A stretch of 64,000 bases of DNA from Promethearchaeota archaeon (GCA_019058365.1 JAHPZE010000002.1:192001-256000); one strand, 5' to 3'. Shown: positions 9,664-59,952, numbered from the stretch's first letter. The notes: generated by a model not told the origin, from the letters alone. Numbers and translations: made by a program.

Positions 9664-9882
9664 CTAAATCCCGCCGGCGATATGGGGAAGGATAACCACT
9701 TCTGATTGCTCATTGATAACGGTATCGGGTGTAGCCTTCTTTCCATCCACTAGAATTCCAAAGTACTTATTTTCTAATTTAAGTTCTTGTAGTAGGTCAG
9801 CTACAGTCATTGTTTTTTCTGGTTTGAACATTTCATACAAGCCAGTATCTAATAATTCAGAAATTTGTTTTATAACAATCAC
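9664..9882 (-). CDS. MoaD/ThiS/SAMP ubiquitin-like protein (likely start ATA at 9873)
   Basis: Beta-grasp pattern ending VVILPHIAGG-I. Confidence 0.85.
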   Translation of the reverse strand: MIVIKQISELLDTGLYEMFKPEKTMTVADLLQELKLENKYFGILVDGKKATPDTVINEQSEVVILPHIAGGI

Positions 9883-10049
9883 CTACATTTTTTTATTATT
9901 AATAATATACACGTTATACTATTTAATATTATTCCTTTATAAAAAGTCGTTTCAGAATGCTGTGAATTCTTGTTTTTGAACCAATTATTGCATTTATTTT
10001 AGTGTTTCTAAATAGATTTTCATTTTAAAGAAAACTGAATAGAAAAATT

Positions 10050-11786
10050 ATGGGTTTTAAACAAAAACCAATTTTTTTTATTTTTACATTACTTTCTATA
10101 AATAGACTTTACTTAGTTCGAGGAGATTATAAAATTATTGAAGAAGAGGAATTCATAGATTATACAGAATATTTAGATAAGATAAGAGAATATGAATCTA
10201 AGATTAAGCAATTAACTGATCCAATAGAGAAAGAAAAGAAAATTAAAGAAATGGTCTCAGGGGCTATTAATTTCTCTAATGAAATTGTTGAATCTGGAGA
10301 ATATTTTGAAGCAGGCGAATTTCTTTTCTCTGTTGCTGAAATAATGGAAAGTCTTGATTTTTCAGAAGCACTCAAATTATATAAGCAAATTATTGAACTC
10401 TATAAAAAATTAATTATTGATTATAAGCTTCAAGCGAAATTACATGAGATTGCTGAGTTATACTTACGAATAGCAGACATTTATCATGATAAAATAGTAG
10501 ATTTACATTCTGAAAAAAAAAATATATTGAATAGTATAAAATTTCTAAAGCAGGAAAGTAAACTTTTAAAGGAGTTCAATGAAACCAGAAAACTTGCCCA
10601 AAATTATCAAAATATAGCAGAATTGTTTTTAAAATTTTCAGATTATATGAATGCTATAAAATACTATGAGAAAGCTATCGCAATTTCAAAACATCATAAC
10701 TACTTTGATATGCTGTCTTTCTCTTATCAACAAATAGGATTATGTTATGAAGAAATCGATGATTATAACAAATCCCAAGATGTAATTTTGGATGGTGTTG
10801 AACACTTCTCAAATTTAGCAACTAAATATGAAGAAAAAAGTGATGGTTTAACTTTAGCTCAAATATATCAGATATTAAAGAATCTTTATCACATTTTGGA
10901 TAAAGCGGATCAATATACTATTTTCTCCAAGAAAGAAGCTGGAGCGTATATAGATCTAGCAGAAACTATAGAAAAAAATAAAGAAAACTTTCATAAAATT
11001 GCACGATATTACCGAGGTGCTGCGTTATGTTATCAAGACATTCAAAATAATTTAATTGAATGTGCTTCTTGTTTTGTATTAGCTGGAAATTTTTCAGAAA
11101 AAATTGAGGATTTTAACCAAGCTGCGATAAATCTTGTTGATGCAGCTAACGTATTTAAAGAATTGAAAAATTTTGATATGGCTTATAAACATTATGTTAA
11201 AGCAGGAGATAATTTTTGGAAAATTGGAAGTATAAACGAGTCCACAGAGAGTTATTTAAACGCCTATGATATCGCTATCGAAGGTGAATTAGAATTTAAC
11301 AGATTTGGGATTTTTAATCAAATAATTAGAGGATTAAATAAGATTGCTGAAGAAGGATTAAAAAATAAGCAATTTTTTACTGCTGCAACCCTTATTTTAG
11401 AAAGCATAAAATTTTATGAACAACTGGATACCGCAAAGGATTATCTTTTGAGAGAAATGGTTAATAATCTTTATCGCTACTATTATAGAGCTGCTAACCT
11501 TAAAAATATTGGCCATTCTCACATAGTTCAAAGCTATGTTCTCGCTTCCATCTCATGTATATTAAATGGAAATTTAGAAAAAGCATGGGAAATTATCTCT
11601 GAAATTGAAACCGAAGGGAACACAATTAGAAAATTCAAGGAAATTATAAGAATAATGATTGAACAAGTTTCCGAAGGGAAAGAAGTAGGATTAGAAGTTT
11701 TCCCCTACAATTTAAGAAGGTTAATAGAAAGCTCTGAAGAAATAACATTTCTTTTGAAATTATTTAAAGGATTTAAAATAATATAA
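10050..11786 (+). CDS. TPR / alpha-SNAP-like helical repeat protein (start probably near 10134)
   Basis: Repeats such as QAAINLVDAANVFKELKNFDMAYKHYVKAGD. Confidence 0.75.
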   Translation: MGFKQKPIFFIFTLLSINRLYLVRGDYKIIEEEEFIDYTEYLDKIREYESKIKQLTDPIEKEKKIKEMVSGAINFSNEIVESGEYFEAGEFLFSVAEIMESLDFSEALKLYKQIIELYKKLIIDYKLQAKLHEIAELYLRIADIYHDKIVDLHSEKKNILNSIKFLKQESKLLKEFNETRKLAQNYQNIAELFLKFSDYMNAIKYYEKAIAISKHHNYFDMLSFSYQQIGLCYEEIDDYNKSQDVILDGVEHFSNLATKYEEKSDGLTLAQIYQILKNLYHILDKADQYTIFSKKEAGAYIDLAETIEKNKENFHKIARYYRGAALCYQDIQNNLIECASCFVLAGNFSEKIEDFNQAAINLVDAANVFKELKNFDMAYKHYVKAGDNFWKIGSINESTESYLNAYDIAIEGELEFNRFGIFNQIIRGLNKIAEEGLKNKQFFTAATLILESIKFYEQLDTAKDYLLREMVNNLYRYYYRAANLKNIGHSHIVQSYVLASISCILNGNLEKAWEIISEIETEGNTIRKFKEIIRIMIEQVSEGKEVGLEVFPYNLRRLIESSEEITFLLKLFKGFKII

Positions 11787-11877
11787 ACCTACAATTTTGT
11801 ATAGTTTAATTGGATGGTTTATAAAGCTTAAATATTTAAAATGAATCCCTTATTTTAATTATAAGACTTTAAGAATA

Positions 11878-12546
11878 ATGAAAGTTAAGAAAAGTAAAAA
11901 TATCGTTTTAAGTTTCGACCTGGATAATACTTTAATTAATAACAGGGATGGCATTGTAGCTTCATTTAATTATGCATTAAATAAACATAACTTACCTATA
12001 TTGGAGAAAACAGAAATAGAACATATGATTGGAACGCCTTTAAATGAAATGTTTGATAGTGTCTCCAACTATGACTCTTCAAAATTAGTTATTGCGTTTA
12101 GAGAATATTATGGGACAAAAGGCATTTATCAAGCAAGTGTTTTACCCGGCATTAAGTCTAAATTAAAAGAATTATATGAATTGCCCTTCACCTTAGGAAT
12201 AATAACATCAAAAAAGCAAGAAATGGCGAAGAGAATCCTTGAAATTTTAAAGATTCAGAAATATTTTGATTATATTATAGGAGAAACAGAAAATACAAAG
12301 GAATTGGGAAAACTCGATCCAAAACTCAAATTAATGTTAGAAAAGAATTACCCTGAATATTATATTATAATCATTGGGGATCATCCTAAAGATGTTATAC
12401 TTTCCAACAACTTAAACTGTCCATTCATTGGAGTATTAACAGGAAACCATTCAGCAGAGCAATTAAAAGCGATAAAAAAAGGAAAAGTACAAATAATAAA
12501 TTCAGTTAGTGATTTGACTATTGATTTAATATTATCTTTAATTTAA
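11878..12546 (+). CDS. HAD-family hydrolase (phosphoglycolate phosphatase-like)
   Basis: FDLDNTL, ITSK, IGDHPKD. Confidence 0.88.
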   Translation: MKVKKSKNIVLSFDLDNTLINNRDGIVASFNYALNKHNLPILEKTEIEHMIGTPLNEMFDSVSNYDSSKLVIAFREYYGTKGIYQASVLPGIKSKLKELYELPFTLGIITSKKQEMAKRILEILKIQKYFDYIIGETENTKELGKLDPKLKLMLEKNYPEYYIIIIGDHPKDVILSNNLNCPFIGVLTGNHSAEQLKAIKKGKVQIINSVSDLTIDLILSLI

Positions 12547-12614
12547 ATCAGATGTTCTAATTTTAGATATCTGTAATAAAAAAGAGAAAAAAAGTAATTA
12601 TTTTTAACAACGCT

Positions 12615-14072
12615 TTATTCTTTTGACCAAGATTCATATTCTTTCATAAATTCCTCTGGTTTCCATTGAGTATCCATATACTTCGGGATTCCAGAACTAT
12701 CTCTAGGTCCTACAACTACAAATGCATCTGCTTCATCTTCTAAGGCTCCACTCAAACGAGCAGCCATGCCTGGAATAATAAGAATTCTATGCTTTACTTT
12801 ATCAAAAGCCCCAAATTCCTTCACGGCTTCAGCTATTGAACCCGCATTAAATTGACCCCCTGCAACAGCGCTTTCAATTCCTATCCCCTCACTATCGACT
12901 ACTAAAAGCCAACAACTTAAGTTAGCTCCTTGCAGATCTTGTTCGACGGGGATTTTAGTCATTCTATAATTACTAGTAACGAATATTGGAGCCATATCTC
13001 CGGGTTCTCCAATCTTATACATACCTGGGTCTACAGCGGGGTAAATTCTTGGGTCAGAAAATACACTTTGTCGTAAAGTCATCAAGGCTAAAAGTGCCCA
13101 GATCTCTTCCTTCTTCTGACCGGTGTGCAATACTAACATATTTGCATCTATAGACTCCATTATAGCTCCCATTATCACTTCTTGATATTGATGTTCCCAT
13201 AATTCTTTATCATTTCCAATCTTTACTTGGCTCCAATAAGCTGCGGGTACACCCATAACTGGCCAACAAGCATTTTTATCTTCTTTATTTATTGCTCCTG
13301 TCCTTAATTGCATAATCCTATCATAAGTTACAGAAAGATTCCCGGGTCCAAAATAAGTTCCTGGATCTAATACCATCTCTTTCACTCCTAATTTCTGTAG
13401 GGTAGCACTCAAAGATACTAACTCATCTAAATTACTAGAAGTAATAGCAACAGGTAAGTTATTTTGTATAGCAAATTTCCCAATTTCCTCCCAAGTATTT
13501 TTTGTAATAGCATAAAGTAAGGGTTTTTTATCCTTAATTTCTTCAGCAGCAGTTAATAATATTTCAGTATTAAAACTACATAGCATAATAGGAAGATTTG
13601 AGAGCTCTGTTACTTTTTTAGCTGCTAACTTAAATTGATCTTTATCTCCGGAAACATTTCTTAAAGCAATACCATCAAGAGTAAGGACATCTCCAATCCT
13701 TTCAATTTTAAGATCTGAAAGGTATTTGATAATATTTTCTAAATCAATGTCGTCATCTGCAATTTCAACAAAGAGAGTTGTTTGGTTATAAAATGTTAAT
13801 TGATGCCTCATCAAAACCTCTTCTCCCCCGATTGTAGCTGTCCTATCTCCAATACCAATAGTTACAGTTTTTTGAGGAGGAGTTAAAAGTTTAATAAGTT
13901 TCTCTCTATTTTTTGCTTGTTTTGGATCTTGGATTAAATGAGTACAATCTTGAACTGTTACCTTTCTTTCCAATGTATCTGTCGCAAAAGCCATACATGT
14001 GTCATATCCGCAATCTTTACAATTCGATTTATCCAAAAGGGCATAAATCTCTAACGGACTTGGTCTAGCCAT
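12615..14072 (-). CDS. cdhE: Acetyl-CoA decarbonylase/synthase gamma subunit (CFeSP large subunit)
   Basis: N-terminal CKDCGYDTCMAFA Fe-S motif, GGEEVLMRH, IIPGMAA...VGPRDS. Confidence 0.92.
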   Translation of the reverse strand: MARPSPLEIYALLDKSNCKDCGYDTCMAFATDTLERKVTVQDCTHLIQDPKQAKNREKLIKLLTPPQKTVTIGIGDRTATIGGEEVLMRHQLTFYNQTTLFVEIADDDIDLENIIKYLSDLKIERIGDVLTLDGIALRNVSGDKDQFKLAAKKVTELSNLPIMLCSFNTEILLTAAEEIKDKKPLLYAITKNTWEEIGKFAIQNNLPVAITSSNLDELVSLSATLQKLGVKEMVLDPGTYFGPGNLSVTYDRIMQLRTGAINKEDKNACWPVMGVPAAYWSQVKIGNDKELWEHQYQEVIMGAIMESIDANMLVLHTGQKKEEIWALLALMTLRQSVFSDPRIYPAVDPGMYKIGEPGDMAPIFVTSNYRMTKIPVEQDLQGANLSCWLLVVDSEGIGIESAVAGGQFNAGSIAEAVKEFGAFDKVKHRILIIPGMAARLSGALEDEADAFVVVGPRDSSGIPKYMDTQWKPEEFMKEYESWSKE

Positions 14073-14259
14073 TTCATTTTCTCCAAATTCTTTTTTAATC
14101 AGTAGTAAATATTCACTAAGTATGGGTACTCTAATTGTAAATTTAATTAAAAATTTGGTTTTTTTAAAACAATTATACCTCTAACTCCTTTTATCTTGAT
14201 TCAATTTCTAAAATAAGATATTAGAAAATTATTAAAAAATTTTTAAATTTACTTAGTTA

Positions 14260-15696
14260 ATGGTTAATGATCAAAAATTTTTTGAAGATCTTAATTCTTT
14301 ATTTTACCCTGAACATATTGCATTTATTGGAGCATCAGAAAGCTCTAGATTGGGCTCAATGTTGTATTTACCAGCTTTTAAGGATTCAATATGGTCCGAA
14401 ACTTTTTATCCCATAAATCCAAAATATAATGAAGTAATGGGTTGGAAATGTTATGCTTCTGTTTTAGATGTTCCATATCCTGTCGATACGGCTTATATCT
14501 CATTGAAGACTAAATTTATCTCAAGAGCTCTGAAAGAATGCGTGGAAAAAGGAATAAAATGGGTAATAATTTTTGCGTCAGGCTTTTCTGAAACGGGAGC
14601 TTCTGAAGGAAAACAATTAGAAGTAGAACTCTTAAAAATTATTAAAGGGTCTAATACAAGGGTAATTGGACCAAATTGCTTAGGCCCATTAAACGCAGAA
14701 AATGGAATGGCATTCTCATTTGCATCTCAAGGAAAATATGGGAGCGTATCTTTTATGTCCCAATCTGGAGGGCATCTAACTCAATTAGTTAACGTTGGAT
14801 ATGAACGAGATATTAGATTCCGTTATGGTATTAGTTTCGGTAATCAAATTGATTTGAATTGCGTGGATTTTATAAGATATTATAGTCAAAATTCACAAAC
14901 AAATCTTATTGCTGCTTATTTAGAATCTTCTGGTTCAGCTTCAGGGCATGAATTATTTTTAGAACTTAGAAAAGCAACTAAAATCAAACCAGTAATTTTA
15001 TGGAAGGGAGGATATACTAAAGATGGATCTCGTGCTGCTTTTTCTCATACTGGTGCAATAGCTTCAAATGATATATTATGGAAATCAATGGCTAAACAAA
15101 CGGGTACTACTCTTGTTAAAGATAATGATGAATTTTGGAGTACAATAAAAACTTTTGAACTATTATATCCACAATATCGGCCTAAAGGACGAAATGTGGG
15201 AATAATAACTCCAGGAGGCGGGTCTTCTGTTAATATCACTGATTTATTCGCATCTCAAAACCTTAAGATACCAGATTTAACTGCTGAATCACAGGCTAAA
15301 ATTGCTAAAGTACTGCCATATGTTAATGTAAATATTAAAAATCCTGTTGATTTAGGTGCATCGGGGTTTATCTTAAATCCCTTTACGGATTGTATAGATA
15401 TTGTGGTTAATGATCCAAACATTGACATAATTATAATACCACTTTGGCCTGACCATATTTATCGGTACGTTTTTAATAGAATGATAAAATGTTTTGAATC
15501 AACCTTAAAACCTTTTGCGTTTTGTTTACCAAGTATTTCCGACGATATTAATCTAGCAAAAAGATTTAATGCAGTTAAAAAGTTATTACATAAGAAACGA
15601 GTTCTCTATTTCTTATCTTTGAGAGACGCGGCAAAAAGTATCTCATTTTTATGTGATTATATAGACTTTCTAAAATCTCATAAAATCTCGAATTAA
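14260..15696 (+). CDS. Acyl-CoA synthetase (NDP-forming) alpha-like CoA-binding protein
   Basis: IGAS, GFSE, IGPNCLG, SQSGG, SHTGAIA, NPVDL. Confidence 0.88.
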   Translation: MVNDQKFFEDLNSLFYPEHIAFIGASESSRLGSMLYLPAFKDSIWSETFYPINPKYNEVMGWKCYASVLDVPYPVDTAYISLKTKFISRALKECVEKGIKWVIIFASGFSETGASEGKQLEVELLKIIKGSNTRVIGPNCLGPLNAENGMAFSFASQGKYGSVSFMSQSGGHLTQLVNVGYERDIRFRYGISFGNQIDLNCVDFIRYYSQNSQTNLIAAYLESSGSASGHELFLELRKATKIKPVILWKGGYTKDGSRAAFSHTGAIASNDILWKSMAKQTGTTLVKDNDEFWSTIKTFELLYPQYRPKGRNVGIITPGGGSSVNITDLFASQNLKIPDLTAESQAKIAKVLPYVNVNIKNPVDLGASGFILNPFTDCIDIVVNDPNIDIIIIPLWPDHIYRYVFNRMIKCFESTLKPFAFCLPSISDDINLAKRFNAVKKLLHKKRVLYFLSLRDAAKSISFLCDYIDFLKSHKISN

Positions 15697-15722
15697 AAAT
15701 AAAAAATAAATCAGTTTTTTAT

Positions 15723-16064
15723 CTATTTTTCTTTAGAAATTTTTTCTAAATATAATTTCATAAAAAATCTTTGACTATTACAGTAAGCAAATTTCTGTTT
15801 TTGACTAAGATCTTTAGAATTCTTTAAAATATAATGTATTTCTTTAATCATTTCAAAATGATTATCTATAATAGTCTCATTTATCTGCTTAAGGATACTT
15901 TTATTCTTTTTTATTAAATTATTTTTGTCTAATTTGTGTTCAAAATAATTACTTTTTTGTAAATTATAATTAGTTAAAATAGCCGATTCATCAAATCTAA
16001 GACTATTTTCAACATTTTTAAGATAAGTTCCTTCTAATTTTCCTGAACTCATTCCGTTTACCAT
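15723..16064 (-). CDS. Hypothetical protein
   Basis: 113-aa ORF with ATG, no recognisable motif. Confidence 0.55.
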   Translation of the reverse strand: MVNGMSSGKLEGTYLKNVENSLRFDESAILTNYNLQKSNYFEHKLDKNNLIKKNKSILKQINETIIDNHFEMIKEIHYILKNSKDLSQKQKFAYCNSQRFFMKLYLEKISKEK

Positions 16065-16412
16065 AAATTTTACTAATACTATTATTTTACTTATATTAAT
16101 TTCAGAGTAGCGATACTATTAACCCATTAATACATTAGCATTATTATTAAAATCAAAAATTCCCGAATTTATCATTAAAAGGAGAGGATAAGGATAACAA
16201 AATTCAAATTAAATATAAAAAGAGATTATTAAAGGCGAAATCCAATGTAAGAGTGAAAATTTTGTTTCCCTTCCTAATTAACAGTTTGACTTAAACTATA
16301 AAAATGGAACAAAATTTTGATTAGGCAAAGATAGACATTTAGGAATTATGAAAACTTTGTCTTTTTTATGAAACATAGAAAAAAAATGAAATCTTAAAAC
16401 TTCAATCTTTCT

Positions 16413-17006: not shown

Positions 17007-17231
17007 GGAAGAGATTAATTTTAAATTTTAGGATAAATTTCAATTGAATTTTAAATCTTTTTACTTTCCTCTTAGATAATAAATAATAGGTAGAATTTAG
17101 TATCATCTTTAATTTCTGCTAAATTATATGATAATTTTACCTTCAATCAATCAAAATATTGTAAAGATGGATTTAAGAGAAGATTTGCTGAAAATTTTAA
17201 TAAATCATGAAATCCTAACAAGACTATAACA

Positions 17232-23024: not shown

Positions 23025-23306
23025 CTATTCTTTCCTCAAACTTTTATCTCGTTGTGATATTTGATGGCTGTGTATGGCACATGAAATACAGTAGTATTTT
23101 GTCTTACTTGGAGCTTGAATTATCGTTCCTGATTTCTTTAATTCAGTATACATCCGGGAATCAACTAGAGAAACCCTTCTTGTTACAGCTTTAGCTTTGC
23201 TACGAGCAACAGTTCGACCACACTTAGCACACTGAACTTTAGCATACTGTCCTTTACTAGATCCGCTTCTACCGCCACTTTTTCTCTTTTTTGGAATAAA
23301 AATCAA
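23025..23306 (-). CDS. rps26e: Ribosomal protein S26e (likely start ATT at 23297)
   Basis: PKKRKSGGR, CAKCGR, YYCISCAIH. Confidence 0.95.
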   Translation of the reverse strand: MIFIPKKRKSGGRSGSSKGQYAKVQCAKCGRTVARSKAKAVTRRVSLVDSRMYTELKKSGTIIQAPSKTKYYCISCAIHSHQISQRDKSLRKE

Positions 23307-23440
23307 CCATTTTTAATTTTTTCTTGTTGATCTTTAGATTTATAAACAATTAAATTGTTTAAAACTTAAAAAATTTATCCTTAAGCATAAAAAACTGCAA
23401 AAATAAAAAATTAAAACATAATTTATAGAGTTAGCTAATT

Positions 23441-27624: not shown

Positions 27625-27653
27625 TTATAATAAGTTAAATAGCTGATAAATTC

Positions 27654-28457
27654 TTGAGAACAACCTTACCTTTTAGGCATGAGAATGAAAAGATTTATTT
27701 AAAGAAGATTAATCCCTTAATTCGCTTAATTTTACCATTTATTTTAGTAGTACCTTTTCTTGTTATAGAAGATTTTTATCTGATATTTACAATTTTATTT
27801 GTTTCTTTAACCACTGATTTAATACTTCGGTTAAATGTAATAAAAATTCTTTCAAGATTGAAAGTGGTTATCCCATTTGTTTTTTTAATTACGATCTTTA
27901 TTCCATTTTATGTTGGGGAGACTGTGGTATATATATTCAATATTGGAATTCCAATAATAATTTATAGAGAAGGTTTATATCTAGCTTCTCTTATTTTTTT
28001 AAGAGTTTTTGGAGCTCTATTCATATTTATGTCATTTTTTTCAACTTTAACTTACTCAGAATTTATAGATGCCTTAACCAAATTACGATTACCTTCAGTT
28101 TTCGTAGGATCTTTAATAATAATGTTACATTATATTCCAATCCTAGCAGGGTCTAACAAAAAGATATTAGAAGCACAAGAAATGAGAGGAAAAAAAATTA
28201 CGTCTTATTGGCAAAAATTAAATGCTCACGCTTATATTATGGGTAAGGGTATTATAATGAATATGGAAAGAAGTGAAAGATTATATGAAAGTTTAAAAAT
28301 GCGAGGTTTTTCTGGTAAAATTACATTTGCTCCAAAAAAAATAAAAATGATTGATTTGGTATTATTAGCATTATTCTCATTAATGGTTATTAGTTTTATT
28401 TTTATTATAAACTTAAAATCAATTTATCAAGGTGTTTTTGCATTAATTTTGCCGTAG
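27654..28457 (+). CDS. ECF transmembrane component CbiQ/NikQ
   Basis: AQEMRG and SLKMRGF motifs. Confidence 0.88.
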   Translation: MRTTLPFRHENEKIYLKKINPLIRLILPFILVVPFLVIEDFYLIFTILFVSLTTDLILRLNVIKILSRLKVVIPFVFLITIFIPFYVGETVVYIFNIGIPIIIYREGLYLASLIFLRVFGALFIFMSFFSTLTYSEFIDALTKLRLPSVFVGSLIIMLHYIPILAGSNKKILEAQEMRGKKITSYWQKLNAHAYIMGKGIIMNMERSERLYESLKMRGFSGKITFAPKKIKMIDLVLLALFSLMVISFIFIINLKSIYQGVFALILP

Positions 28458-29197
28458 AAGTAGAAGATCTGAATTTTTGTTATAATTCGGGGTTTAAAAT
28501 TCAAGATATATCGTTTAAATTAGAGGAAAAAGTTATTTGTGGACTTACTGGAAATAACGGTTCCGGAAAAACAACTTTATTAAGATTATTAGTCGGATTA
28601 TTAAAACCTCAATCAGGAAAAATCAAGATTTTTAATAATACACTTACAAGAGATAAACAAGAATTATGGGAGACCAGAAAAACAATTGGTTTTTTATTCC
28701 AAAATCCTGATGACCAACTATTTGCTCCTACTATTGAAGAGGATATTAGCTTTGGAGCAAGAAACCTAAAACTTGATGAGGAAGAAGTACAAAGAAGAGT
28801 CAATTGGGCTTTAAAAGCGGTAGATTTATCAGAATTTAAAGAATACTCCCCATTTAATCTCTCTTGGGGTCAAAGAAAAAGAGCTGCTTTAGCTGGGGTG
28901 CTCGCAATGAAACCCAAATTGCTGATTTTGGATGAACCTTTTGCTAATCTTGATTTTAAATCAATTTACAATCATCTTAAAATTTTAGAAAAACTAAGAA
29001 AAGAAAATGAAATAACTATATTCTTCACATCTCATAATTTATTCTTCATCGAGCATTGGGCAGAATATATGTTACTTTTAGATGAAGGTAAAATCATTTT
29101 TGATGGTGAACCTCATAACGGATTAGGAGATTTAAATGTCAAGAAATTACTTGGATCTTATGATGATATTCTTTCATTAATAAAAAAGAAATATTAG
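28442..29197 (+). CDS. ECF ATPase CbiO/NikO, full length from inferred ATT start
   Basis: Open frame with GNNGSGKT, FQNPDDQ, LSWGQRKR and LDEP; no ATG/GTG/TTG in frame between TAG 28391 and GTG 28898. Confidence 0.88.
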   Translation: MNFAVEVEDLNFCYNSGFKIQDISFKLEEKVICGLTGNNGSGKTTLLRLLVGLLKPQSGKIKIFNNTLTRDKQELWETRKTIGFLFQNPDDQLFAPTIEEDISFGARNLKLDEEEVQRRVNWALKAVDLSEFKEYSPFNLSWGQRKRAALAGVLAMKPKLLILDEPFANLDFKSIYNHLKILEKLRKENEITIFFTSHNLFFIEHWAEYMLLLDEGKIIFDGEPHNGLGDLNVKKLLGSYDDILSLIKKKY

Positions 29198-30870: not shown

Positions 30871-31077
30871 ATATTTGTCAACCTATTATTTATATCATCT
30901 TCTAATTCAGTTTCTTTAAGGTTAAAAAATAGTTATTTAAACTTATCTTTATATTTTTACCTTACACCTACTTATTTAATGAAGAAATTTTAAATATAAA
31001 AATTTAAGTAAACTCAGTGTTTTTTCTACGGTTTATAATAAAAAATAATATTATATTCTTTTCAGTAAATTTAATTC

Positions 31078-31574: not shown

Positions 31575-32552
31575 TTATTTGTGGTTTTTCTTTAATGATA
31601 TTCCAAGGTTAAGATTTTCTACAAGTTCGCTAAAGCGGTTTCGAACGGTAACTTCAGTTACACAACTAATATTAGCAATTTTTCTTTGAGTTCTTCGCTC
31701 ATTGGTTAAAATACATGCAGCATAAATTGCTGCGGCACAAACACCCGTTGGACCTCTTCCAGAGGTTAAACCACGTTCCTCAGCAATCCTGATTATAACT
31801 TTTGCCATTTTCTGGCATTCTGTAGTCAATTCTAATTCTGAAATAAATCTTATAAGAAAATCTATAGGCTTAGTTGGATTTAAATTCAATTCCAATTCTT
31901 TTGATATGAATCTGAAAGAGCGACCAATTTCTTTCTTATCTACTCTCGCTACTTCAGCTATCTCATTTAAGGTACGTGGAACCTTGTACATTCTACACGC
32001 GGCATATAGACTTGCAGCGGCTACCCCTTCAATACTTCTACCCCTTATTAAATGTGCTTCAACCGCATCTCGGTATATTTTAGCTGAACATTCTCTTAAA
32101 TTCTTTTGAAGATCCAAGTTTGAAGCCATTCGGTCAAGTTCGCTTAATGCAAACGTAAGGTTTCGTTCAGTAGCATCAGATACTCTTATACGACTTTGCC
32201 ATTTGCGAAGTCTATAAATTTGACCCCTCAATTTAGCAGGTATTTCTTTCCCAAAAATATCTCTATTTTTCCAGTCAATCATAGTACTAAGCCCTTTATC
32301 GTGTATCATATAAGTCATAGGCGCTCCCGTTCTTGTTCTCTTCTTTTTCTGATCAGCATCGAAAGCTCTCCATTCTGGTCCGCGATCAATATATTTTTCT
32401 GAATGAACTAAACCACATTCTTCACAGACTATTAATCCTCTATTTTCATCAAAAAACATGTTTTTTCCGCATTCTGTACATATATTATTTTCTGTATGAG
32501 AAAAATCTTCTGATTCTGCTTTCACTTCTTTCCAATTTGAAATAAAACACAC
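31575..32552 (-). CDS. tfb: Transcription initiation factor IIB (likely start ATT at 32543)
   Basis: Zn ribbon, GPEWRAF, HDKGLST, two cyclin repeats. Confidence 0.96.
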
Positions 32553-42277: not shown

Positions 42278-42793
42278 GTGTTAAATATGAAAGAAAATAT
42301 AGAATTAGAATTAGAAGAATTAATGGAATTGATGAGATATGCTTTTCTCAGATTGGACGGTGCGTGGTTCATGGCTTCAGTTGAAAAATTCGGTTTGAAG
42401 AATGCGACAGAATTAGATATAAAAGCATGGGAGATGTTTTCTGAAAGGTTGGGAAAGAAAATTGCTTCAATAACAAACTTGAAAGGTAATTTATCTCAAA
42501 CTTTGCCAAAACTGATGAAAATCCAACATACACTCATGAATATGAATTCAGAAATAGAAGTTATTAATGAGAGCAAAATGATTCACAGAGTTTTAGAATG
42601 TGAAGTTTGGAGAATGGTTCAGAAAGTATGGACTCAGGATGCAATTCCTTGTCACAAGGTTACACTAGCAAGTATTAGGGGTTTGCTAAAGGGAGCTTTT
42701 CCAGAAAAAGAGTTTATTTTAAAACATAAGAAGAAAATCCCTTTGGGAGATCCTTGTTGTGAGATTGAAATTTCCATTAAAAGCAATAATTAA
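42278..42793 (+). CDS. DUF6125 / V4R-like protein
   Basis: LDGAWF, C...PC...CC pattern. Confidence 0.65.
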   Translation: MLNMKENIELELEELMELMRYAFLRLDGAWFMASVEKFGLKNATELDIKAWEMFSERLGKKIASITNLKGNLSQTLPKLMKIQHTLMNMNSEIEVINESKMIHRVLECEVWRMVQKVWTQDAIPCHKVTLASIRGLLKGAFPEKEFILKHKKKIPLGDPCCEIEISIKSNN

Positions 42794-44393: not shown

Positions 44394-45578
44394 GTGATAA
44401 AAATTACAAATCAATCAGAATTTACTACAAAATATATTATTGAAGTTAAGTTCAAAATTATGGGTGTAGTTGAGAAATCAGATATCGTTGGAGCAATATT
44501 TGGGCAAACGGAAGGTCTTCTATTAGATCTTGATTTAAGGGATTTACAGAAGTCGGGAAGGATTGGTAGAATAGAGGTTGAAAATGAATCAAAAGAAGGA
44601 ATTTCGAAAGGTATTATAAATATTCCATCCTCTTTAACGAGAAAGGAAACTGCATTATTGGCAGCAACTGTTGAAACTGTTTCTCGTGTGGGGCCATGCG
44701 AAGCAGAAATTACACTTATCGAAATTCGGGATGTTCGCGAAACTAAACGACAACAAATAATAGAAAGAGCAGCAGAACTTTTAAAAGAATGGGATCAAAA
44801 ATCCCTAGAACAAAGTGAGATAGAAGAACAAATTGATACAGATATAAAACTTGGAGAGATTATTTCATGGGGCTCAGAAAGTCTTCCTGCAGGCCCAGAA
44901 GTGGATAGTAATCCAGAATTAATTATTGTAGAAGGTCGAGCTGATGTTTTAAATCTATTAAGAATTGGAGTTAAAAACACGATTGCCGTTCAAGGAACTC
45001 AAGTTCCAAAGTCAGTAATTAAATTAGCTAAACAAAAAAAATCAGTAATAGCATTTGTCGATGGAGACCGTGGTGGAACGATTATTCTTAATGAATTATT
45101 ACAAGTTGCTAAGATTGATCATGTAGCTAGGGCTCCTAATGGATCGGAAGTAGAAGAATTAACCCGAAAGCAGATGATAAAAGCATTGCAAAACAAAAAA
45201 CCAGCAAAAACTTTTAAAGTTATGAAAGAAAAAGATAAAATTCAAAAAAGAAATGGCGATATTGATGGAAGTATTCAGAAAATTTTAAAAAAATTAAAAA
45301 TAAAAGATGAAACAGTAATTATTAAAGCTATACAGAATATACAACCAGGTTTTGCTATTGGATTTAATAAGGCTCTTGAAAAATTATTTGATATGCCCGT
45401 AGGTGAAATTTTCGAAAAAATTAGAAATTTTAAAGATACCCAGTATTTAATAATTGATGGTATTTTGTCAAAAAGGCTCCTTTCACTTTCAATCAATATG
45501 AAAATTAAATTAATTGTAAGTAAAAATAAAGAAGAAGAATTAGTTATTCCAGAAAATATCTTAGTCTGGTTCTTTTAA
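44394..45578 (+). CDS. dnaG: Archaeal DnaG (TOPRIM, exosome-associated)
   Basis: DIVGAIFGQTEGL, VEGRADV, DGDRGG. Confidence 0.95.
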   Translation: MIKITNQSEFTTKYIIEVKFKIMGVVEKSDIVGAIFGQTEGLLLDLDLRDLQKSGRIGRIEVENESKEGISKGIINIPSSLTRKETALLAATVETVSRVGPCEAEITLIEIRDVRETKRQQIIERAAELLKEWDQKSLEQSEIEEQIDTDIKLGEIISWGSESLPAGPEVDSNPELIIVEGRADVLNLLRIGVKNTIAVQGTQVPKSVIKLAKQKKSVIAFVDGDRGGTIILNELLQVAKIDHVARAPNGSEVEELTRKQMIKALQNKKPAKTFKVMKEKDKIQKRNGDIDGSIQKILKKLKIKDETVIIKAIQNIQPGFAIGFNKALEKLFDMPVGEIFEKIRNFKDTQYLIIDGILSKRLLSLSINMKIKLIVSKNKEEELVIPENILVWFF

Positions 45579-50526: not shown

Positions 50527-50543
50527 TCCGAGTTATAGTGGTG

Positions 50544-51970: not shown

Positions 51971-51992
51971 AATTGCTTTCAAGAACAATTAA

Positions 51993-52337: not shown

Positions 52338-52371
52338 TATCATTATTTTAATTAATAAGAGAGAGTGGTTT

Positions 52372-53046: not shown

Positions 53047-53095
53047 AATCACTAAAGTTAAAAGAAATGGTGAATTTAATATATTACCCAAATTA

Positions 53096-53167
53096 GCGCC
53101 GCTAGTCTAGGGGTTATGATTCCGGCCTTCCAAGCCGGTGACCCGGGTTCAATTCCCGGGCGGCGCA
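53096..53167 (+). tRNA. tRNA-Gly(TCC), intronless
   Basis: Acceptor GCGCCGC/GCGGCGC, anticodon arm CCGGC-CTTCCAA-GCCGG, GGTTCAATTCC. Confidence 0.96.
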
Positions 53168-53220
53168 TAAAAACATTCCTTTTTTAAACCCATATAATAA
53201 CAAATCTTATACAATAAAAT

Positions 53221-53244
53221 TTCGTGAAAGGATAATTTCACGAA
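53221..53244. repeat. Perfect 9-6-9 inverted repeat
   Basis: TTCGTGAAA-GGATAA-TTTCACGAA. Confidence 0.75.
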
Positions 53245-53460
53245 GATTTGAATGTTATGAAAAAACCAATTTTTTCTAATATTTCATAAAGCAAAGAGTT
53301 ATATTTACATATTTGTATTTTATTGTTGAAAAAACGCCTGCTAAATACTTTCCATTTCCATATTAGATCACTTCTTTATATGTATTAAAAAGGCGCTTTT
53401 TCACTTCTTTTAAGTCTAATATATTTTTCTTTCATCAATCTTAAATTTCTTATTTTATTA

Positions 53461-54627
53461 TTGAGTAATACTATACTATTAATCATTATAATGGTTAAAT
53501 ATACTTATAAAGAATTTAAGTCAGTTTTAAATAAATTAAAATATCCAGATTCATGGTTTTGGTCTCGATACACATTAAACACATATTCTGGATGTGCTCA
53601 TGCTTGTATCTATTGTGATGCTCGAAGCGAGAGATATTATATCGAGGATTTTGAAAATGAAGTGATTATTAAAACTAATTTCGATAAGAAACTAGATCAG
53701 AGACTTAAAAAAGCTCGAACATTATTGCCTGATATAATTGCTCCTGGTGGTGTAAATGATGCCTATCAACCTATTGAAAAGAAAATTGAGCATACGAGGA
53801 AAGTATTAGAAGTTATTGCAAAATATAAATTTCCAATTAATATCGCTACTAAATCGAATCTAGTTACTCGAGATGTTGATATTCTTAGAAAAATCGCAAA
53901 TGAGACATGGTGTGCTATAGGATTCTCTATATCGACTACAAATGAAGAACTAGCGAAATTCTTAGAACCTTATTCTTCTTTGCCTTCGGAACGACTTGAA
54001 GCTTTAAAAAGGATAAAGAAGGAAGCTCCTAATATTCAAGTTGGGACATATTTCATTCCTATAATTCCATTTTTAGAGGATACTGATGAAAACTTAGAAG
54101 ATGTAATAAAAAAATCTAAAGAGGCTGGTGCTGATTTTGTATTATTTTCACCTGGCTTGACCATGAGGGATTCTCAAGTGGAATATTTCTTAAAAAAATT
54201 AAAAGAAAGTAATTATAACTATGTTGTTAAACCACTACTTGAATTATATCAAGGTCAGATGCATCCACCCTCAGAATATTGTAAAAAAATTAATAATAAA
54301 TTATGGAATTTATGTCAAAAATATAATGTTAATGTCCGAGTAAAACGTTGGATTCCTTCAGATTTCCGTAATTGGAATTATAAAATATCAGAATTACTCT
54401 TAAATAAAGAGTATATAGATGCATTAAAAACAGGTAAATCGAATAAAACTCTAATGTGGGCAGGATTGAACCTTAATAACCTAGAAGAATCGATTTTAGA
54501 CTTTTATAAGAGAGATGAATTGCACACTATAAAAAACTTTAATCCCAAAATAATTGAACTTATCGAACCTTACTTGGAAAAAAGTAAAGAATTAAAACAA
54601 AAAAAGGGGTTAGAAAAATTTCTATAA
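53461..54627 (+). CDS. Radical SAM protein, SplB/Rv2578c-like
   Basis: YSGCAHACIYCDAR, DAYQPIE, IATKS, LEP...ERL. Confidence 0.85.
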   Translation: MSNTILLIIIMVKYTYKEFKSVLNKLKYPDSWFWSRYTLNTYSGCAHACIYCDARSERYYIEDFENEVIIKTNFDKKLDQRLKKARTLLPDIIAPGGVNDAYQPIEKKIEHTRKVLEVIAKYKFPINIATKSNLVTRDVDILRKIANETWCAIGFSISTTNEELAKFLEPYSSLPSERLEALKRIKKEAPNIQVGTYFIPIIPFLEDTDENLEDVIKKSKEAGADFVLFSPGLTMRDSQVEYFLKKLKESNYNYVVKPLLELYQGQMHPPSEYCKKINNKLWNLCQKYNVNVRVKRWIPSDFRNWNYKISELLLNKEYIDALKTGKSNKTLMWAGLNLNNLEESILDFYKRDELHTIKNFNPKIIELIEPYLEKSKELKQKKGLEKFL

Positions 54628-54659
54628 TCACAGAAATAATCACAGAAATCAATGAAGTA

Positions 54660-55364
54660 TTGAAAAATACAGCTCCTAAATTTACTCCCGAACAGATTGT
54701 TCGAAGAAACAAAATACTAAATTCTAATAATCCAAACTTTTTTGGATATGGTCATAAGATTTCTGATATAGAAAAAATTACTAAAATCGTCCATATGAAA
54801 TATCAATGTAGTTATGAAGATGCTCTCACCGTTTGTAAAAATTTAGTTAGTTCCAGTGTTCATGAGGAGAAATTTGCTGGTATATTTTTTCTCAATTACT
54901 TTAAAAGCAATTTCAATCAAGCGACTATAGATATGTTTGAAGAACTATTCTCCAAACACTGTGATACGTGGGCTTTTTGTGATAGTAGTTGTATTAGAGT
55001 TATTGGACCATTTCTCGGAAAAAAGAATAACCAACAATTAGCTGAAAAAACAATTGATAATTGGTCAACATCTGAAAATCTTTGGGTTAGAAGAGCTTCA
55101 ATAGTAATTCTACTTAAAATTATAATGATTAAAAAAAGATTCGATGAGGATTATGTATTTGAATTTGTAGAAAAAATGCTTAATTACACCGAGGATTATA
55201 TTCAGAAAGGTATTGGTTGGCTCCTAAAAACGTGCTCAAGATATAAACCTGATTCAATTTTTAAATACTTAATGAGTAATAAAAAAAGACACTCCCGCTT
55301 AATTCTTAGATATGCTAGCGAAAAATTAACTAAAGAAAGAAGGGAGTTAATTTTGGAAAAGTAA
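54660..55364 (+). CDS. DNA alkylation repair protein (AlkD-like)
   Basis: DTWAFCD, SENLWVRRAS, YIQKGIGWLLK, LRYASEK. Confidence 0.88.
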   Translation: MKNTAPKFTPEQIVRRNKILNSNNPNFFGYGHKISDIEKITKIVHMKYQCSYEDALTVCKNLVSSSVHEEKFAGIFFLNYFKSNFNQATIDMFEELFSKHCDTWAFCDSSCIRVIGPFLGKKNNQQLAEKTIDNWSTSENLWVRRASIVILLKIIMIKKRFDEDYVFEFVEKMLNYTEDYIQKGIGWLLKTCSRYKPDSIFKYLMSNKKRHSRLILRYASEKLTKERRELILEK

Positions 55365-55477
55365 AGGAATCATATGAAAAAACTTTATATGATATTTTTT
55401 CCTTTTTAAATTACGAATTTTGATATTTTAAAAACTTAAATGTTTTATAAAATAAAAATTCTCAATATAACCAAAGA

Positions 55478-55668
55478 GCCAAGGTGGCGTAGTAGAACTC
55501 CTAATTAGGGAGTCTGCGAACCCCGGGAACGCACTAGAATCATCAGAATTACTGATAATGGTGAAACTGAAGATCTAGGTATCGAGCAGAATGAGCTCCT
55601 CGTTCATTCTCGAGAAAGTTCAAAGGGATTCGCCTTGAACGGATTCCGGAATAATCTCTCCCTTGGCA
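55478..55668 (+). tRNA. tRNA-Phe(GAA) with four non-canonical introns (15/16, 30/31, 51/52, 58/59)
   Basis: Removing 55493-55521, 55538-55565, 55587-55616 and 55624-55653 gives a 74-nt cloverleaf with all four stems paired; TATA about 25 nt upstream. Confidence 0.9.
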
Positions 55669-55992
55669 ATTATCCTAATTCTCATCAATAATATAAATCA
55701 TTCAAATTTCTTATAGAAATAGTTCAATTTTCCCCTTAATTCATAATTCTTAAAATTTAAAAATGTTTGATATAGTTCTAAGGTTGTAGGGATTCTTTTC
55801 TATTTTTCATTGAATTTTTCAATAAAATCATGCACTTTTTGATGTTTTATATTACTAACAGATATGATGCTGTTGGTTGGAGGAGTGCGCAGATGAACTC
55901 TTTTGAGAGTTAGATACTTAAAGATATTGAAAGAGAGGGTTAAGAACTAAATATTTTAAAAAAATAAAACAAAAAAGGCAAAAAAATAGACT

Positions 55993-57108
55993 TTAAGATT
56001 TCTTCAATTTTTTACTTAAAATGATTACTACAACGGATAGAATGCCAAACAGAACGAATAGATTATATCCAGGAATTATTCCATCGTCTTGATTATAAAT
56101 ACAATCTCCATTATCACTAAATGTGTTTCCTTCACAATCAATCTCTATGAAGCATCCATCATTTTCTTGCAAGATGTTTCCCGAAATTATATTATCATCA
56201 CTATTTTTTAAATATATCCCGAATTGAGAATTGTTGAATACGTTGTTTTCCTTAATGTCGTTCCAATTGCTGCCTTCTAAATATATTCCGTTAGTGCCAT
56301 CATAGCTTATACTATTTTCTGTAATTTTATTTCTATGACTATCTACTAAATTTATTCCATTAACGGTATTAAAGCTTATAGCATTTCCCGAAAGGAAGTT
56401 ATTAAAACCATATACATATATCCCACTAACCCCGTTATTACTTGCGTTGTTTCCTGAAATGAAGTTGCTATTACCTCCACAACTTATCCCATCAAGCATG
56501 TTGTTATTTGCTGTATTTCCTGAAATTATGTTATTATTACTTACTATAATTCCTATCCCAAACCGGTAATTCATGTCTGCTGTATTTCTCGCAATGATAT
56601 TATGATAACATCCCGATAAATATATTCCATAATAAGTCAACGAACAATTATTCATGATTATCAGAGAATTGTTTACATTTGATAATTTAATTCCAGCTTT
56701 ATATTCTCCTGGCGGAAATTGGGATATCGCATTGTAGAGGGTACAATTTTCAATCGTAAAATAAACATTTGAATTTTCAATCCAGATACAATTTTCTCCA
56801 TTTTTTGAACCTCCACCATCTATTATCAAATCTTCTATCACGTAAGGGTCGGAATGTGTGCCCGACCCCGAACAATTTCCATCATTTTTAAAATCAACCC
56901 AACCAGAATTACCATCTATATAAATTGGTTTTGATACTTGTGAGGTTTTCAAATTTTCTTTATTAAAAGAAATATCATCACTATATTCCGAATATGGAAA
57001 GCTATTTCCCGCATCAAGAATGAGATTAGTGTTATTTATAGTTGAAAGGATGAAAACAATTCCTATGGTGATTAAAATAATAATTTTTGATTTTGCATTT
57101 GATTTCAT
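55993..57108 (-). CDS. NosD/CASH beta-helix surface protein with Loki-CTERM-like anchor
   Basis: Paralog of 33242-34450; NNIISGN repeats; IPGYNLF-TM-KKLKK tail. Confidence 0.82.
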   Translation of the reverse strand: MKSNAKSKIIILITIGIVFILSTINNTNLILDAGNSFPYSEYSDDISFNKENLKTSQVSKPIYIDGNSGWVDFKNDGNCSGSGTHSDPYVIEDLIIDGGGSKNGENCIWIENSNVYFTIENCTLYNAISQFPPGEYKAGIKLSNVNNSLIIMNNCSLTYYGIYLSGCYHNIIARNTADMNYRFGIGIIVSNNNIISGNTANNNMLDGISCGGNSNFISGNNASNNGVSGIYVYGFNNFLSGNAISFNTVNGINLVDSHRNKITENSISYDGTNGIYLEGSNWNDIKENNVFNNSQFGIYLKNSDDNIISGNILQENDGCFIEIDCEGNTFSDNGDCIYNQDDGIIPGYNLFVLFGILSVVVIILSKKLKKS

Positions 57109-57499
57109 ACTATTTTCCCATACAAGTTAAATATAATTTGTAGCAATTAATAATTAGGTTAATTTTCTTTATATACATTTCAATCTACAACAGAAAGAAT
57201 ACCAAGCAGAAGGAAGAGATTAGATCCCCGCTTTCTTTCTATAATTCAGTTCACTTATTTCGGAATCATCTTCTTTCTTACTTTTCTTCCACATGTCCTA
57301 CAAATCTGGGTTGCTTTAAATACCCCATAAATCCAACCCTCAAATCAAAGTATAAGAAAAACCCCTAGTGTATTCTTACCATTTTTTAACTTGCATATGT
57401 TTTTCTCAAGTTTATTTTATATACAACAAAAAACACATTTGCTCATACTCTCTAATAAATATTTAATAAAGACTCTTAATTTAAATGCTTAGATTCAAA

Positions 57500-58687
57500 A
57501 TGAAATATGATTTTGATAGAGTTATCGAACGTTCTGGTACTAATTCTGTTAAATGGGACAAACAATTTCTTAAAGAACACTTTAAAACTGATGACATTTT
57601 GCCTCTGTAGGTTGCTGATATGGATTTTCAATGTCCTCAACCCGTCATTGATGCGTTAAAAAAGAGGGTTGATGCAGAAATTTATGGATATTGCTGGCAT
57701 AAAACTCCTACCTATTTAGATGCTGTTTCGAATTGGATGAAACGAAGACATGGATGGGAAATTGATAATGAATGGATAGTTTTCAGTCCTGGAATTGTTC
57801 CCGCTATTTATATGTTAGTTCAAACGCTTACTAATGTAGGAGAGAAAGTAATTGTTCAACCACCAGTATATTATCCTTTTTTTTCAGCCGTAGAAAATAA
57901 TGGACGTATCCTATTGACAAATCAATTGCATTATGAGAATAAGAGGTATACATTTAATTTCGAAGATTTTGAAGAGAAAGCTAAGGATCCATTAACTAAG
58001 ATGTTTATTCTCTGTAGCCCTCATAACCCTGTGGGGCGCGTTTGGACTGAAAAAGAACTTAGAAAACTTGGAGATATTTGTTTAGAAAATGATGTAATAA
58101 TAATTTCAGACGAAATTCATCACGATTTAATTCTTTCAGGATATAAACATACTCTTTTTTCTACAATATCGGATGATTTTGAAAGAAGCACAATTATGTG
58201 TACCGCACCAAGTAAAACATTCAATATTGCTGGTTTAAAAACGTCTAATATAATTATTCCAGACGAAAAAATGAGAGAATCATTCATAAATGTAATATCT
58301 AATAGGAATAGTGTTATGAGTCCAAATGCTTTTGGTATAGTTGCTTTAATTGCAGCCTACAATGAAGGAGAAGAATGGTTAGATCAAGCCTTAAAGTATA
58401 TCGAAACTAATTTTAAATTCTTAAAAGAATTTGTTAATGAAAAACTCATCAATATTGATTTCGTTGATCCAGAAGGGACTTATCTTGCTTGGTTAGATTG
58501 CAATAGATTGAGTATGGATGATGAAGAACTTAGTAATTTTATGCTTAAAAAAGCAAAAGTTGCACTGGATGATGGTAAAATATTTGGTCCAGGTGGAGAA
58601 GGATTTGAGAGAATAAATGTAGGATGTCCACAATCGATATTAAAAGAGTGTATGAATCGTATAGTTAATGCATTAAATGAAAAATAA
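57500..58687 (+). pseudogene. MalY/PatB PLP-dependent C-S lyase/aminotransferase interrupted by in-frame TAG at codon 37
   Basis: MKYDFD...NSVKWD...LPL*VADMDF (TAG 57608-57610 where the family has Trp); SPHNPVG, SDEIH, APSKTFN intact. Confidence 0.8.
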
Positions 58688-58713
58688 TTTTTTCTTAACT
58701 AGTAGTATTGAAT

Positions 58714-59241
58714 TCAATGAAATAATGGGTTTTGATTTCTTCTTGAGTCGTTATTAATGAAAACCCTAAATTTTTCATTGTTTTCATCGATAAATTCCCA
58801 AAATTCATTATAAATATCTTCAAGAGACATTTTTTTTTTCTGAAAATTAGTTTTTCGATTTATTTGCTGATTATAGTTCTTCTTTAGAATTTCTTTTGGT
58901 GTATATTCAACATAATTGCCTTCTAAAATTAAATTTTCAAAAAGTCCAATATCCCCTTGTTTATTTATATTAAGATCAGAATTCTTTTCGTCATTTGACT
59001 TATTTTCAAATTCAAAATCTACTCTCTGATACCCTCGAACCTGAAAATTTTTATCCACAAATGCTTGAAATTGATGCTCGCACACTAATCCTCGTGCTAT
59101 GGACATTGTAGTTAGCTGTTTTGCTTCTGAAATTACAGTTTTAGGAATTTCTAATGATTTTTTTGACTTACATACTGGACATATAAATTCAACCTTCGAT
59201 CTATTGATATTTACATTCCTCTTAACTTCTGTGATTGCCAT
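58714..59241 (-). CDS. Zn-ribbon-containing hypothetical protein
   Basis: CPVC...CEHQFQAFVDKNFQVRGYQ. Confidence 0.7.
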   Translation of the reverse strand: MAITEVKRNVNINRSKVEFICPVCKSKKSLEIPKTVISEAKQLTTMSIARGLVCEHQFQAFVDKNFQVRGYQRVDFEFENKSNDEKNSDLNINKQGDIGLFENLILEGNYVEYTPKEILKKNYNQQINRKTNFQKKKMSLEDIYNEFWEFIDENNEKFRVFINNDSRRNQNPLFH

Positions 59242-59361
59242 TATAACACCTTCTTGAGATTATCTAAAATTAACAATAAAAACCCCATTTATTTCATAAT
59301 AATAAGGATGAGATTTAAGTTCGAGGACTATACCTATTAAGTAATTTATAAATTATCAAAA

Positions 59362-59904
59362 TTAGGTACTATCGGGATCAAATTTGATATTCATATTGGT
59401 CTCATCCAATTCAAAATTAATCTCTAAATTTGATACTAAATCACTTTTAATTTTGAAACAATGAGACCCTTTGGTGAATTTCTTTAAAATATCATCATCT
59501 AATTTTATTAAGAGACTGATACTATCGTTTAGATTAACCGTTCTACCGCTCAATTTACCTTCCATAATATCATTTAAATTAAAGGATTCTCCTTTATGAT
59601 AGATTGATAAACGACTTTTTAACGTATCTAAATTAACATTATCTTTAGAAAAGTTTAATTTCATATCGTCTAAGTAAAATTCTCTATATTTAGATACATC
59701 AAGAGTATTAGGATCAAACTTTTTAATATTAAAATCTCCAATTTCAATTTCTTCAGGAATTACAAATGGTATAAGTAGATTAATAAATTTTATTTGTATT
59801 GAATCTACTCTCCCGTCACCGTCAGTATCTAGTATAAAGACACTCCTTTTTGGCGGAAAGATCTTTTTTATCAACACTTTGAATGCAGATAAATCATACG
59901 ATAT
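59362..59904 (-). CDS. Hypothetical protein with DxDxDG motif (inferred ATA start; ORF track starts at 59877)
   Basis: DTDGDGRVD; GGGTGA SD 6 nt before in-frame ATA. Confidence 0.65.
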   Translation of the reverse strand: MSYDLSAFKVLIKKIFPPKRSVFILDTDGDGRVDSIQIKFINLLIPFVIPEEIEIGDFNIKKFDPNTLDVSKYREFYLDDMKLNFSKDNVNLDTLKSRLSIYHKGESFNLNDIMEGKLSGRTVNLNDSISLLIKLDDDILKKFTKGSHCFKIKSDLVSNLEINFELDETNMNIKFDPDST

Positions 59905-59952
59905 AAAATTTCACCCTAATTATTTTTTATGGATTATTTGTAAATCTAAATA

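Follow-up and report, generated by a model that had tools for sequence, protein, structure and literature searches.

ATT, ATA and ATC behind Shine-Dalgarno motifs as probable start codons in a genus of Promethearchaeia

In a stretch of 64,000 nucleotides from the genome of a Promethearchaeota archaeon (hereafter the window; G000:C34:192001-256000 in our numbering), 7 of ~57 genes appear to start at ATT or ATA behind a Shine-Dalgarno (SD) motif. Our data indicate that ATT, ATA and, less often, ATC (together ATH) very probably serve as genuine start codons in this genus of the Promethearchaeia (Lokiarchaeia) and in at least one sister family, a reading that rests on sequence comparison. A first-pass annotation of the window had proposed that ATT and ATA at SD-optimal spacing are real starts and routine in the lineage. 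This proposal is supported by a genome-wide tally, by ortholog alignments and by Pfam domain boundaries, and ATC has been added to it. The start set in the lineage appears to comprise ATG, TTG, GTG, ATT, ATA and ATC.

Enrichment of ATH codons at Shine-Dalgarno spacing

The window belongs to a metagenome-assembled genome (MAG) of 4.74 Mb in 54 contigs, with 29.5% GC and an estimated contamination of 6.6%. The 3′ end of its 16S rRNA is GGATCACCTCCT, and the SD motif is therefore a subset of AGGAGGTGAT. A strong SD was found upstream of only a minority of genes; where it leads an ATG, this codon lies 4-7 nucleotides (nt) beyond the A of GGTGA. For the tallies we used 3,691 non-overlapping stop-to-stop open reading frames (ORFs) of at least 120 codons each, with ATG, GTG and TTG taken as canonical starts. 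The first-pass annotation had suggested counting the codons behind SD motifs across the genome, and this count showed that ATH is enriched at functional SD spacing over the background. When SD sites within 8-15 codons of the upstream stop were classified by the codon at spacing 4-7 or 12-15, the ATH fraction was 0.34-0.39 at the former compared to 0.14 at the latter (5-mer SDs; p 4e-14 to 9e-13). The excess amounts to 75-86 sites beside 229-264 canonical ones, or ~100 beside 314 with a search range of 40 codons; with 4-mer SDs, 150-238 sites stand beside ~700-820 canonical ones. Enrichment of ATH was observed solely at spacing 4-7, where ATG peaks.

A further tally was confined to orphan SD sites, that is, GGAGG, GAGGT, AGGTG or GGTGA near ORF 5′ ends with no in-frame ATG, GTG or TTG at spacing 2-12. 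At an aligned spacing of 6 (n=101), ATT was found 23 times, ATA 21 times and ATC 5 times, compared to an ATH total of 38/301 at the spacings that share its frame class (3, 9 and 12; Fisher p=1e-12). The apparent preference for spacing 6 is a matter of ascertainment, because the TGA of GGTGA is an in-frame stop there and excludes an upstream canonical codon; at spacing 5, the GTG of the SD falls in frame. The signal was weaker when sites with canonical starts were retained (ATA 1.6x), and the orphan-site tally was used in place of such a count. When all 61 codons were compared at orphan SDs, clear enrichment was observed in ATA and ATT alone (2.1-2.4x, p~1e-4). Usage of ATT:ATA:ATC is 31:30:7. 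Altogether, ATH codons make up roughly one fifth of SD-led starts; they start a minimum of 2-3% of long ORFs, with 4-6% as the probable figure. The sequence context flanking ATH starts showed nothing distinctive. As a separate observation, CTG, which might act as an additional minor start, is weakly enriched at functional spacing behind orphan SDs genome-wide (6 vs 1, p=0.017).

It could be argued that SD and ATH meet by coincidence in AT-rich leaders and that the proteins are shorter, starting at the next downstream ATG, GTG or TTG. Many automatic gene calls do choose downstream starts, and truncated aIF1 products of 65-90 amino acids from other pipelines are found in public collections. Nevertheless, this explanation seems extremely improbable. 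Contrary to what such a coincidence would require, other codons made of A and T only (TAT, TTA, AAT, TTT and AAA) showed no peak at functional SD spacing in the orphan-site tally. Moreover, 43 ORFs genome-wide carry an SD and an ATH, with the stretch from the upstream stop to the ATH free of canonical codons and the next canonical codon following 15-152 codons downstream. In 42/43 of these ORFs, the segment between the ATH and the first canonical codon has its best coding score in frame 0. Downstream starts would also delete Walker A, the phosphate-binding loop of actin, the P-loops of GTPases, zinc ribbons and most of aIF1. In 13 ATH-initiated proteins a Pfam domain begins at residue 2-21 (profile position 1-5). 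These include actin (residues 9-379 vs profile 3-407 of 410), three Ras-family GTPases, a response regulator, an SDR, uL16/L10e (with an ATC start), DUF134, Usp, DJ-1/PfpI, a GPN-type ATPase and the ABC ATPase of the window. A 14th protein, a PALP enzyme, has its domain from residue 71, and all 14 domain starts precede the first canonical codon.

The Lokiactin gene lies 57 kb past the window (G000:C34:311881-313023, minus strand). It has an ATT start behind GAGGTGG (Pfam Actin 8e-129), and its first canonical codon is found 48 codons in, beyond the phosphate-binding loop.

To define the phylogenetic reach, ATH fractions were also determined in two 800-kb samples. In a genome of a sister family (G032, family f2, 30.8% GC), the fraction was 0.31-0.35 vs 0.09-0.11 (p~0.003-0.005); a clear case is the N-terminus of an FtsX-type permease behind GAGGTGA. 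In a genome of another Asgard class (G076, 41% GC), it was 0.14 vs 0.13 (p=0.85), although 127-182 canonical starts there are led by an SD. Since this null result was obtained despite abundant SD-led starts, the enrichment test is not a method artefact. The trait is one of this order and is not Asgard-wide, with the GC content differing between the G032 and G076 controls.

The seven candidate genes of the window

The seven genes, with their start codons and SDs, are as follows (coordinates are those of the window).

9667..9873, minus strand: ThiS/MoaD-like small modifier; ATA 9873-9871, SD AGGTGA 9884-9879, 5 nt gap, in-frame GTG inside the SD
10134..11786, plus strand: TPR/SNAP-like protein; ATT 10134 or the adjoining ATT 10137, SD GAGGAG 10120-10125, 8 nt gap
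23025..23297, minus strand: ribosomal protein S26e; ATT 23297-23295, degenerate SD GGTTGA 23308-23303, 5 nt gap
28442..29197, plus strand: ABC/ECF-type ATPase; ATT 28442, SD AAGGTG 28429-28434, 7 nt gap
31575..32543, minus strand: transcription factor B (TFB); ATT 32543-32541, SD AGGTG 32554-32550, 6 nt gap, in-frame GTG inside the SD
44403..45578, plus strand: DnaG (Toprim); ATT 44403, SD GTGAT 44394-44398, 4 nt gap
59362..59904, minus strand: gene of unknown family; ATA 59904-59902, SD GGGTGA 59916-59911, 6 nt gap, its TGA being an in-frame stop

All seven sites cited in the first-pass annotation were found at their coordinates with the geometry described for them, and the same geometry was confirmed for the ATG-started control genes at 42278 (+9) and 59241 (+8). 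Start codons were compared in 24 congeners and in outgroup families of the same order, using 20-kb syntenic stretches. The congeners are MAGs labelled Promethearchaeota or Promethearchaeia and include Loki_b32, ABR05/06 and the closed chromosome CP070805. With tblastn of stop-to-stop ORFs against close congeners, the start of conservation could not be located, DNA identity extending the alignments into non-coding or shadow frames. The N-terminal alignments of orthologs, which had also been suggested as a check, support the ATH start in all seven genes.

As had been described, an in-frame TTG or GTG lies within the SD, 9 nt before the ATH, in the genes for S26e, TFB, the ThiS-like protein and DnaG. 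This codon inside the SD-like motif might be the true start, in which case the ATH would merely be codon 4. The GTG and TTG codons are in frame in this genome, and both are genuine starts elsewhere in the window, where other genes have conserved TTG or GTG starts that interchange with ATG in congeners. On the other hand, the GTG within the SD has no SD of its own. For each of the four genes there are congeners in which an in-frame stop separates the GTG or TTG from the ATH, or in which the GTG or TTG is missing or not in frame, and the ATH position interchanges with ATG or GTG in orthologues. We therefore regard a start inside the SD as very improbable.

The clearest comparison is provided by S26e, a single-copy gene whose Pfam match covers residues 1-89 (profile positions 1-93). 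Among congener loci, 22 have ATT as the start codon and one has ATA. TAG-CTG-ATT-TTT precedes the ATT in most congeners and places an in-frame TAG four codons upstream, so that no canonical start is possible in those congeners. In outgroups, the same codon is ATG in 5/6 loci and GTG in 1/6, and GGTGA is present in 4/6. TFB starts at ATT in 10 congeners and at ATC in one; AGGTG or GGGTG is retained upstream, and two congeners carry an in-frame TGA between the GTG of the SD and the ATH. The Pfam TFIIB zinc ribbon begins at residue 21; the alignment to outgroups begins only at residue 13-19, with an ATG further along those loci. DnaG starts at ATT or ATA in all congeners, never at ATG, and its SD in most of them is GGAAGTGAT. 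An in-frame TGA in G021 and G008 rules out the GTG there, and in 5/6 outgroup loci an ATG is found 1-2 codons upstream of the aligned codon. The ThiS-like protein (Pfam ThiS match 2e-9) has ATA, ATT, ATG or GTG at the same position among congeners; the GTG of the SD is out of frame in two congeners, one of which also has an in-frame TGA. Where the alignment to outgroup families extends to this codon, ATG is found at it or beside it.

The remaining three genes behave similarly. The TPR/SNAP-like protein has a Pfam SNAP/TPR match, and an in-frame TGA stands four codons before the conserved ATT ATT in at least 14 congeners. The upstream ATG at 10050 is therefore not conserved and is an accident of one substitution. 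The start of the ABC ATPase overlaps the 3′ end of the upstream gene (27654-28457), and the next in-frame canonical codon follows 152 codons downstream; Pfam ABC_tran matches residues 21-168 (profile 2-137 of 137), and ATT is found at the same or the next codon in 10/11 congeners. For the gene at 59904, the same codon is ATA, ATT, ATC or ATG across 24 congeners, and several of them have a second in-frame stop 1-2 codons upstream.

Artefacts of sequencing, assembly or binning, or pseudogenes, might also be considered, since the genome is a MAG in 54 contigs with some contamination. However, the same ATH codons are found in ~24 independently assembled congeners, closed chromosomes included, and S26e, aIF1 and DnaG are single-copy, essential genes with intact and conserved ORFs. 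The likelihood of such an artefact is close to nil.

Some side observations concern the same genes and their neighbours. Degenerate SDs (GGTTGA, GCTGAT and AGGTTGA at 23303-23308, 27639-27653 and 30871-30882) are found upstream of S26e and of two genes with TTG starts, and congeners share them; much of the pairing seems to fall to the 3′ portion of the SD (TGAT). Other ORFs of the window with long canonical-free 5′ segments (53389, 54588, 14180, 1674 and others) showed no convincing combination of SD and ATH. At 54588-54660, 24 canonical-free codons follow a stop, with an AAAGGGG motif and ATT, ATA and ATC shortly downstream; as a possible eighth ATH start this ORF is unconvincing. In six congeners (L059, L068, L069, L071, L072 and L073), the DnaG gene carries a conserved insertion of 39-42 nt with an in-frame TAG or TAA. 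RNAalifold on the insertion in congeners gave no clear bulge-helix-bulge. The insertion site lies in the motif A-I-F-G-Q|T-E-G, at about 44500-44505 of the window, whose own DnaG lacks the insertion. The gene is single-copy, and the 3′ end of the insertion duplicates the end of the upstream exon. The insertion may be an mRNA intron or a site of translational bypass.

Initiator tRNA, aIF1 and a proposed mechanism

We propose that the duplex between the SD and the 3′ end of the 16S rRNA (GGAUCACCUCCU) would position a codon that lies 4-7 nt further downstream at the P site. The first two bases of this codon would pair with the ordinary initiator tRNA (CAU), and the mismatch at the third position would be tolerated. 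The initiator tRNA would thus read ATH and insert methionine, so that the protein would begin with Met. The leniency might be located in aIF1 or in the ribosome. AT mutation pressure (29.5% GC) plausibly drives changes from ATG to ATH, and these may survive because the initiation machinery is lenient.

The first-pass annotation had named aIF1 and the initiator tRNA as places to look for an explanation. Both turned out to be ordinary in sequence, whereas the aIF1 gene itself starts at ATT. One initiator tRNA gene was located, by motif, at G000:C35:107637-107744 (plus strand). It has the anticodon CAT (CAU), A1:U72 and three G:C pairs in the anticodon stem. As its sequence is unremarkable, any relaxation is not visible in it. 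The gene carries a 32-nt intron adjoining the anticodon loop and, like most other tRNAs of the genome, is missed by standard tRNA finders. Aragorn with introns gave 30 tRNAs, with no Met or Ile genes among them, and the Rfam tRNA model gave 25. The genetic code does not seem to be altered: 5140 internal ATA codons align to I at 30%, V at 19%, L at 17% and M at 4%, and ATT and ATC behave alike, compared to 24% alignment to M for internal ATG. Because internal ATA, ATT and ATC behave as Ile codons, the code is not reassigned, and AUA = Met of the mitochondrial type is not encountered.

A dedicated device might read ATH instead, for instance an initiator tRNA whose C34 is modified or a second initiator that has escaped recognition, or proteins might be initiated with isoleucine. 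Such a device would reconcile routine AUH use with a normal-looking aIF1, and f5C (5-formylcytidine) is known to let mitochondrial tRNA-Met read AUA. Since introns are present in many tRNA genes, the inventory of tRNAs is incomplete, and within it neither an initiator paralogue nor an AUH-complementary anticodon was found by similarity, nor a second copy of either half of the initiator gene. Additionally, a single modified base that reads A would not account for the use of all three codons (ATT, ATA and ATC), and internal ATA is Ile rather than Met. We consider a dedicated device unlikely, and tolerance of the third-position mismatch by the ordinary initiator tRNA is the preferred explanation.

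The aIF1 gene is single-copy and lies outside the window (G000:C35:130370-130684, minus strand). It starts at ATT and has no canonical alternative: a stop is found two codons before the ATT (one codon in two congeners), and apart from TTG at positions 87 and 91 of 105 its frame contains no canonical codon. The protein can be aligned over its full length with M. jannaschii aIF1 (residues 3-101), and comparison with solved aIF1 structures showed no obvious deviation, although subtle changes may have been missed. An SD-like AGGTTGTGAT lies ~9 nt upstream of the ATT and is conserved across three genera. The ATT is likewise conserved in three genera of the family, while outgroups have TTG, ATG or GTG, and ATA in two or three cases. 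The first-pass annotation had also expected mis-annotated Asgard N-termini. Other callers do truncate such proteins, whereas NCBI PGAP already begins some of them at ATT as M; the PGAP aIF1 proteins of these MAGs, named ‘YciH’, begin at ATT read as Met. As a side observation, the aIF1 gene of another Asgard family (L260 in G047, 47% GC) apparently starts at ATA, a codon preceded by AGGAGG and by an in-frame TAA, which is a hint that weak aIF1 starts occur beyond this order as well.

The ATT start of aIF1 might form a feedback loop. Weak start sites are the means by which IF3 and eIF1 control their own synthesis, and the aIF1 of S. solfataricus rejects AUU in vitro (PMC4705826). By analogy, the conserved AUU of aIF1 at sub-optimal SD spacing could provide negative feedback of the IF3/infC and eIF1 kind that would set the amount of aIF1 such that AUH initiation is efficient, with a stringency that is deliberately low and self-tuned. 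We put this forward tentatively, as a possibility that is rather doubtful at present. If it were true, autoregulation of the proofreader through a weak start would predate eukaryotes or have arisen three times, and the genes initiated at AUH, among them TFB, actin, small GTPases and ribosomal proteins, would make up a regulon responding to the aIF1 level.

Several observations weigh against ATH as routine start codons. S. solfataricus aIF1 discriminates against AUU in vitro (PMC4705826); routine AUU use calls for an explanation, and none was found in the aIF1 sequence. There is no compensation by the SD at ATH starts, the mean SD run being 5.87 vs 5.80 at ATG starts (p=0.38). Four of the seven window genes retain an in-frame GTG or TTG 9 nt upstream that is possibly usable too. 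In one congener (L043), the ABC ATPase has ATT at neither of the two codons. In the nearest congener (L157 in G005), the start of the ThiS-like gene is GTA, and only the in-frame GTG of the SD is left; this may be either a switch of the start site or a defective gene.

Relation to known initiation systems

Initiation at AUH codons behind an SD is known from bacteria: NCBI table 11 lists ATT, ATC and ATA among the starts, and E. coli infC starts at AUU behind an SD. What is new here is the scale, the occurrence in an aIF1/aIF2-type system and the inclusion of aIF1 itself. As in infC, near-cognate AUH codons are used at a spacing set by the SD, presumably with a normal initiator tRNA. Bacterial AUU initiation concerns a handful of regulated genes, whereas here ATH accounts for about a fifth of SD-led starts and housekeeping genes are included. 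The machinery here is of the archaeal and eukaryotic type (aIF1, aIF1A and aIF2), while bacteria use IF3. The gene of this bacterial fidelity factor itself uses AUU (PMC4705826), and the parallel is that a fidelity-factor gene with an AUU start codes for IF3 in bacteria and for aIF1 here.

In eukaryotes, eIF1 has a poor start context, and a low level of the factor raises its own synthesis (PMC4705826). The aIF1 of these archaea, with an ATT start at a long spacing of ~9 nt, resembles eIF1 in that a proofreader is made from a weak site. The eukaryotic case differs in that an AUG in a poor Kozak context is reached by scanning, whereas an SD and AUU are used here and the feedback is drawn by analogy. 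AUA and AUU starts are also found in mitochondria, whose genomes are AT-rich as is this one. However, mitochondria have AUA reassigned to Met and one tRNA-Met for both roles, whereas here internal ATA is Ile and there is a separate canonical initiator. The GUG and UUG starts of archaea share the SD-led initiation, but they vary the first base of the codon and ATH varies the third.

Descriptions of archaeal initiation give AUG, GUG and UUG as the start codons, with AUU rejected by aIF1. Our data suggest that stringency at the third position can be relaxed across the board where initiation is of the aIF1/aIF2 type, with S26e, uL16, TFB, DnaG, actin, small GTPases and aIF1 among the genes concerned. 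The finding is relevant to the control of start-codon choice in the archaea most closely related to eukaryotes. The class has cultured relatives, and the evolution of fidelity towards eukaryotes is therefore directly testable. Gene callers limited to ATG, GTG and TTG truncate or drop such genes, and the possible cost is that Asgard comparative genomics records genes as absent when they are not, and that N-termini are too short there and in structural constructs.

Reviews of archaeal initiation do not list third-base start variants as routine (PMC4705826), and full-text literature searches returned no paper that treats AUH initiation systematically, be it in Asgard or in other archaea. A single case has been described in another lineage. 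For the Asgard tubulin AtubA of Kariarchaeaceae, a ‘rare ATT start codon’ was proposed, as the deposited N-terminus is too short and an ATT behind a plausible ribosome binding site restores the fold (PMC13394414). In contrast to this one gene, for which the start was called rare, ATH use in the present order is systematic and has been quantified.

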